In this document: positions 3,165 through 3,424 of the stretch, piece by piece | How the letters are laid out: the number at the start of each line of letters is the position of its first letter | Position numbering within the stretch: position 1 is the first letter of the stretch | NCBI RefSeq assembly: GCF_003334815.1 | Contig: NZ_QOWO01000076.1 | From: Escherichia coli | GTDB taxonomy: Bacteria; Pseudomonadota; Gammaproteobacteria; Enterobacterales; Enterobacteriaceae | Direction: 5' to 3' (one strand) | Length of the DNA stretch: 4,596 nt | Program-made: the position numbers and the translations under genes | Notes under the pieces: model-generated | The model's database searches: none | Told to the model about the DNA's origin: nothing | The model's input: only the letters and a program-made list of their open reading frames with translations

Positions 3165-3424
3165 TAACGATACACCGGGTTAAACAGGTGGTCACTGCTT
3201 CACTGAAGCTGCGTGATTATGATGGTCAGGTAGCAGAAGCTATGCCCATGATACCAAAATGACGAAAGCCGAAATGTCTGAAAGCGTGTGTATTACCTGA
3301 AAATATGACCGGCTCCGGGGTACGTAACCGATTCAACAAAGCCAATCGATATTACAAAACGAGAGGGACTATATATTTCGTTTTCAGATAAGACTCCTTG
3401 AGAGATTATCTTTTATGTAAAATC

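Follow-up and report, generated by a model that had tools for sequence, protein, structure and literature searches.

An open frame beside an IS3-type end upstream of the Escherichia coli fec genes very probably belongs to an IS903-group insertion sequence relic

Directly outside an IS3-type left inverted repeat in Escherichia coli DNA (contig NZ_QOWO01000076.1 of assembly GCF_003334815.1; the whole stretch analysed, 4,596 nucleotides long, is referred to as the window), the plus strand stays open for about a hundred nucleotides before the DNA becomes rich in AT. The question raised by this locus is which gene, if any, the open stretch was once part of. A sequence-only reading had proposed the C-terminal remnant of a host gene split by the IS3 insertion. 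Translation of the window agreed with it on the frame itself, which is open from position 3165 to a TGA at 3260..3262 and, with codon starts at 3122+3n, reads ...AVHLAACPLLLDKIITIHRVKQVVTASLKLRDYDGQVAEAMPMIPK up to the stop; in the ORF listing the same frame begins with an ATG and covers 3053..3262 (69 aa). The openness of the frame alone is no better than chance, and it is the homology that makes the stump real. From that homology, 3165..3343 can almost certainly be regarded as the right-hand 179 bp of an extinct insertion sequence of the IS903 group (IS5 family), and its content is with high confidence the last ~46 codons of the transposase, a short untranslated tail and a terminal inverted repeat. 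The features on which the argument is built are the following.

2956..3129, plus strand: right end of an IS1203/IS629-like element (IS3 family), terminal sequence ...CCCGGGGCGGTTCA
2956..3087, plus strand: transposase C-terminal pseudogene of the IS1203/IS629-like end, as called by PGAP
3127/3130..3164, minus strand: IS3-type left inverted repeat stub of 35-38 nt, outer terminus TGATC... at 3164
3167..3255, plus strand: transposase relic, part A, codons TIHRVKQVVTASLKLRDYDGQVAEAMPMI, similar to residues 276-304 of IS903B (322-aa ORF)
between 3255 and 3256, plus strand: deletion site, where the alignment with IS903B and two other IS903-like sequences has a gap of 10 columns
3260..3262, plus strand: out-of-frame stop TGA, downstream of the 10-bp deletion
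3256..3300, plus strand: transposase relic, part B, original frame KMTKAEMSESVCIT, native stop at 3298..3300
3326..3343, minus strand: terminal inverted repeat of the IS903-like right end, the outermost 13 nt, GGCTTTGTTGAAT (3331..3343), being identical to IS903B
3344..3424, no strand: AT-rich flank of ~30% GC, leading to the 3' end of a YmgB/AriR-family gene

The full IS903B transposase, taken as the 322-aa ORF from plasmid pEC96-CTX-M-215, was used as the reference in BLASTP. The frame of the sequence-only reading aligned with its residues 277-304 (18/28 identical, E=3e-11), and the neighbouring frame, TKMTKAEMSESVCI, aligned with residues 308-321 (E=4e-4), so that two reading frames match consecutive parts of one transposase. 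Over 3167..3253, corresponding to residues 276-304, 18/29 amino acids and 68/87 nucleotides are identical, and in part B, 39/45 nucleotides are identical to the last 45 nucleotides of the IS903B gene, KMTKAGMPESVRIA with its stop. At the DNA level, blastn in distant mode aligned 3168..3320 with IS903B copies at 76-77% identity (E=2e-26). A peptide stitched from the two frames was searched by tblastn against plasmids and gave 62% identity over 92% of the query (E ~5e-9) in at least 5000 plasmid records, almost all of them at IS903B or IS5-family transposase genes; the full-length genes found in this way are IS903B/IS5-family transposases. Homology to the IS903-group transposases is documented for the C-terminal ~46 residues only.

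The TGA at 3260..3262, taken by the sequence-only reading for the end of the gene, turned out to be a product of the 10-bp deletion, which shifts the frame and thereby brings this stop into it. The native stop is the TGA at 3298..3300 that closes part B and is common to IS903B. An E. coli allele in which a single base is added (P0001) reads straight through to ...VCIT (...MSESVCIT) and so supports the position of the native C-terminus. This 76-aa ORF call over the relic (NCBI/UniRef, E. coli) bears the name 'tail protein from Bacteriophage (fragment)', which is a mis-annotation of IS debris. A complete transposase with a DDE catalytic domain is absent, the stump starting at residue 276 and being frameshifted. 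Pfam places two DDE domains, DDE_Tnp_1 and DDE_Tnp_1_5, at residues 34-145 and 130-308 of the IS903B transposase; since DDE_Tnp_1 is the one that spans residues 130-308, only the tail end of this catalytic domain is left in the stump. A minus-strand ORF at 3226..3345 (39 aa) was also considered and set aside; it runs antisense to the transposase homology and is without any support.

Searches with short peptides were less productive. The NCBIfam scan of the raw and stitched peptides of 46-48 aa returned no family, the peptides probably being too short, and a protein search with a 43-aa stitched peptide, word-indexed and limiting for so short a query, returned only 14 short proteins (ORF calls of 43 to 76 aa) and no full-length parent; most of the 14 come from this IS903-like relic itself. 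The empty NCBIfam scan could be counted in favour of a frame that is open by chance and has no coding ancestry, as could the length of the frame, since 14-22% of random sequences with this composition would contain an open stretch of 32 codons (14% of shuffles of the stretch, 21.5% for uniform codons). Against this, the match to IS903B is colinear and of high significance in both protein and DNA, which leaves a chance frame with practically no probability.

Further support for the insertion sequence came from the DNA beyond the coding part. In the DNA alignment the similarity to IS903B continues through the native stop and runs on to the shared terminal ...ATTCAACAAAGCC, ending at 3343, so that a terminal repeat lies tens of nucleotides after the transposase stop, as in the IS903 group. 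The spacer between the native stop and the terminal repeat is 43 nt here and 56 nt in IS903B, the two being colinear. The outermost sequence, GGCTTTGTTGAAT, has a single exact match in the window, with 0.01 expected by chance. A search of the window for the full 18-nt IS903 repeat with up to three mismatches allowed gave no match, because the inner five positions of the 18-nt repeat differ from the IS903B end. A second terminal repeat is not present in the window, the terminal sequence occurring in one copy and the left end being absent.

The composition of the DNA changes at the same position. The sequence-only reading was right about a contrast in GC content (46-47% in the stump versus 30-32% further on) and wrong in letting the stretch end with it at ~3262. 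The GC content is 46.4% in 3166..3262 and 47.2% in 3166..3343, compared with 29.9% in 3344..3420 and 32.5% in 3344..4020; the fall from 47% to 30% is located exactly at 3343/3344, ~80 nt past the stop. With the AT-rich DNA beginning at 3344, the step in GC content reflects the edge of the insertion sequence and not the stop codon. The IS903-like element would have inserted into this AT-rich flank. An intact IS903-group element has two terminal inverted repeats about 1.05 kb apart and is flanked by a 9-bp target duplication; here the left end has been lost, and the duplication with it.

The relic is already known as a pseudogene, annotated by NCBI in thousands of E. coli genomes. In three independent genomes RefSeq (PGAP) describes 3170..3300 as 'IS5/IS1182 family transposase; frameshifted; incomplete; missing N-terminus'. 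The copies DAECLI1_RS20955 (NZ_AP018784.2) and CEQ27_RS31095 (E. coli O104:H4) represent the same DNA, being 100% identical over 3130..3420 with the annotation at 3170..3300. The IS903 group, the 10-bp deletion and the terminal repeat at 3331..3343 go unmentioned in the RefSeq annotation.

With these results the origin from an ordinary, non-mobile host gene, whose C-terminus was split off by the IS3 insertion, can be judged. The frame is indeed open to 3262, and its break coincides with the IS3 terminus at 3164, so that the earlier proposal holds as far as a C-terminal gene remnant broken at an IS3-type terminus is concerned. It fails on the nature of the gene, since those full-length relatives that share this C-terminus are transposases of the IS903 group (IS5 family). 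Every homologue found is an IS903/IS5-family transposase, apart from short ORF calls on this or similar relics; moreover, the homology goes on in the second frame to the transposase stop and is followed by an IS903-type terminal repeat, and PGAP itself calls an IS5/IS1182 transposase pseudogene. An origin from a host gene is effectively refuted already and must be considered highly improbable.

The IS903-group relic was compared with IS903B (IS903; IS5 family, IS903 group), with the last ~200 bp of which the stump is colinear. Over residues 276-322 the identity is 62-64% for amino acids and 76-78% for nucleotides, rising to 39/45 nucleotides at the very end, and both share the order of gene end, stop, spacer and terminal repeat, the outermost 13 nt of the latter being identical. 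The differences are that only 179 bp of ~1057 bp are left here, that the relic has the frameshifting 10-bp deletion and a 13-nt shorter distance from stop to end, and that the inner 5 nt of its 18-nt repeat differ. Judged by sequence, the parent of the relic was a different, unnamed member of the IS903 group and not IS903B itself, because the nucleotide identity is ~77% and the inner repeat sequence is different. A closer intact parent was not found among plasmids at 80-95% identity by tblastn. In E. coli, blastn gave 4 records in the band of 80-95%, among which one listed short match covers 52 nt (H100); a closer intact relative did not turn up in this collection either.

On the left, the relic is bordered by the IS3-type stub. 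The IS3 left terminal inverted repeat, TGATCTTACCCAGCAATAGTGGACACGCGGCTAAGTGAG..., was found at 3164..3127 on the minus strand, which from 3164 downward reads TGATCTTATCCAGCAATAATGGACACGCGGCTAAGTGA; the stub is oriented with the IS3 interior towards lower coordinates. In the alignment it has two mismatches to K-12 IS3A as well as to the second IS3 left end of the window (4319..4355), and position 3165 is the first base outside it, as the sequence-only reading had stated. The IS903-like gene breaks off precisely, to the base, at the outer end of the IS3-type repeat. IS3 makes a 3-bp target duplication flanking both of its ends. Neither the window nor the matched genomes examined still contain the right end of this IS3 copy or the upstream portion of the IS903-like gene. 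The IS3-type left end is in turn interrupted by the IS1203/IS629-like element, which is truncated on its left at 2956 and of which 2956..3128 showed 95-99% identity in megablast to transposase elements annotated as 'IS3 family' or 'IS3-like element IS1203 family'; the last three nucleotides of the stub, TCA, are common to the IS1203-like end.

The junction between the IS1203-like end and the IS3 repeat (3130..3147) exists in two alleles. The type found in the window keeps ~35 nt of the IS3 repeat, and in the other, which is without the 18 nt of 3130..3147, the IS1203-like end directly abuts ...ATTGCTGGATAAGATCA. The shorter allele occurs in many genomes (hits H149-H165, protein cluster P0012, contig L005).

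From the way in which these ends are nested we infer an order of insertions. An IS903-like element would first have entered AT-rich DNA of the island, its right end coming to lie at 3343. The IS903-like transposase gene would then have received an IS3-type element at the codon that corresponds to residue ~275, and an IS1203/IS629-like element would have landed ~37 nt inside that IS3. Subsequently, deletions may have removed what was left of the IS3 as well as ~880 bp from the 5' side of the IS903-like element, and finally the stump would have lost 10 bp, which would have shifted the frame and given rise to the stop at 3260..3262.

As for the function, the relic can neither transpose nor make a transposase, because almost the whole DDE domain and the left end are missing. 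Most likely it is a functionally inert passenger, pseudogene DNA that travels with the fec-associated island. Scans of 3130..3420 found no Rfam family and no promoter-like or terminator-like sites in the stump. A different fate would be co-option, either by expression of the chimeric 69-aa ORF 3053..3262, which runs from the IS1203-like end through the IS3 repeat into the IS903 stump, or by a regulatory or terminating effect of the stump on the convergent YmgB/AriR-like gene. The ORF does exist and is sometimes called by gene callers (P0003-P0012), and near-identical sequence is present in ~2200 genomes. The empty scans of 3130..3420 speak against such a role, however, as do alleles with frameshifting indels (P0001) or with an indel of 18 bp within the ORF (P0012, L005). 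Strains without the stump keep the neighbouring genes, and the region as a whole is 99.9% identical, which accounts for the conservation. Co-option of the relic is accordingly very improbable, and there is equally little reason to believe that the three-way chimeric peptide of 69 aa is functional or that the relic is kept for an effect on the YmgB/AriR-like gene or on fec expression.

In megablast against complete E. coli genomes, 3130..3420 was present in 2206/5426, with at least 99% identity in 2132 records. In the carriers, the relic is positioned upstream of fecIRA, in the island that precedes ykiE-fecIRA, and the whole 4.5-kb region is 99.9% identical among them. An identity of at least 99% in the relic is what selection, too, would produce. 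As the 99.9% identity of the entire region explains the conservation of the relic, it points to recent common descent of the region and not to selection on the stump. In other E. coli strains the relic has been lost via IS-associated deletions. Strain Ecol_AZ146 (L009, NZ_CP018991.1, 3480..3660) is without 3165..~4358, and in a derivative of E. coli B (L010) an IS1A replaces everything left of ~3351; the IS903 stump is dispensable in both.

The segment lost from Ecol_AZ146 comprises the IS903 stump, the YmgB/AriR-like gene and the IS3-family relics, and the first IS3 stub is fused there to the flank of the directly repeated second IS3 left end (4319..4355), at a point 3 bp inside that flank, a junction that suggests an IS-end-associated deletion. 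The same IS1203/IS3/IS903 junction was also seen in a metagenome contig of 1418 bp (L005, ENA ERZ15185001, 1136..1357), in which the 3' half carries an undeleted, more IS903B-like C-terminus (...AMAMVRALNKMTKAGIPESVRIA) at a coverage of ~1x. This contig may be an assembly chimera or reflect gene conversion with another IS903 copy, and it was left out of the evidence on the ancestral state.

Nested IS debris is known from IS-rich islands such as KpLE2, and the present locus resembles it in having three IS ends (IS1203-, IS3- and IS903-like) within 400 bp. The arrangement found here differs in being variable between strains, the stump being lost in some of them via IS3 or IS1 ends. In K-12 and B, the fec cluster is part of the phage-like element KpLE2 (PMC3032704). 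A literature search for this exact IS arrangement near fec found only that location of fec in KpLE2. The relic has little biological weight, representing routine nested insertion-sequence decay upstream of the ferric-citrate (fec) genes of E. coli. Its practical value is that the stop at 3260 can be read as a frameshift artefact and the GC step as the IS boundary at 3343/3344, and that the short 'hypothetical protein' calls over the stretch in some genomes can be recognised as a mis-annotated transposase pseudogene. The stacked IS ends may also be used as markers for tracing rearrangements of the island among strains.

The remainder of the window contains several other genes and IS remnants.

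40..1077: IS66 tnpC-like frame
1117..1194, plus strand: 'DUF6404 family protein' pseudogene fragment of 78 nt (PGAP)
1316..2689, minus strand: 'esterase-like activity of phytase family protein', 452-457 aa, with an apparent signal peptide
3425..3706 (ORF 3425..3718), minus strand: 'biofilm development regulator YmgB/AriR family protein'
4022..4126, minus strand: separate C-terminal fragment of an IS3-family transposase
4120..4355, minus strand: second, degenerate IS3 left end with its repeat at 4319..4355
~4430..4596: IS1 end (GGTAATGACTCCAACTTACTGATAGTG...), beginning at ~4430

The YmgB/AriR-like ORF has 97 aa from the first ATG and 93 or 85 aa in PGAP, and is placed in DNA of 32% GC between IS relics; it is kept in the E. 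coli B derivative despite the IS1A that replaces the stump. The degenerate IS3 left end, in which the orfA start position is AAG and not ATG, is annotated by PGAP as a frameshifted 'hypothetical protein' pseudogene and is adjoined by the separate IS3-family transposase fragment. The phytase-family esterase-like gene lies between the IS66 element and the IS debris, and the DUF6404 fragment follows just after the IS66 transposase gene. In megablast, positions 1..75 did not align with those E. coli chromosomes whose identity to 76..4596 is 99.9%, and the IS66 tnpC-like frame stays open across 75/76; these first positions may belong to a different IS66 variant or mark a recombination junction. At the other side of the window, the IS1 end is present, for example, in AR_0067 (L008) and absent from SK1144 (L001), where ykiE-fecI is directly next.
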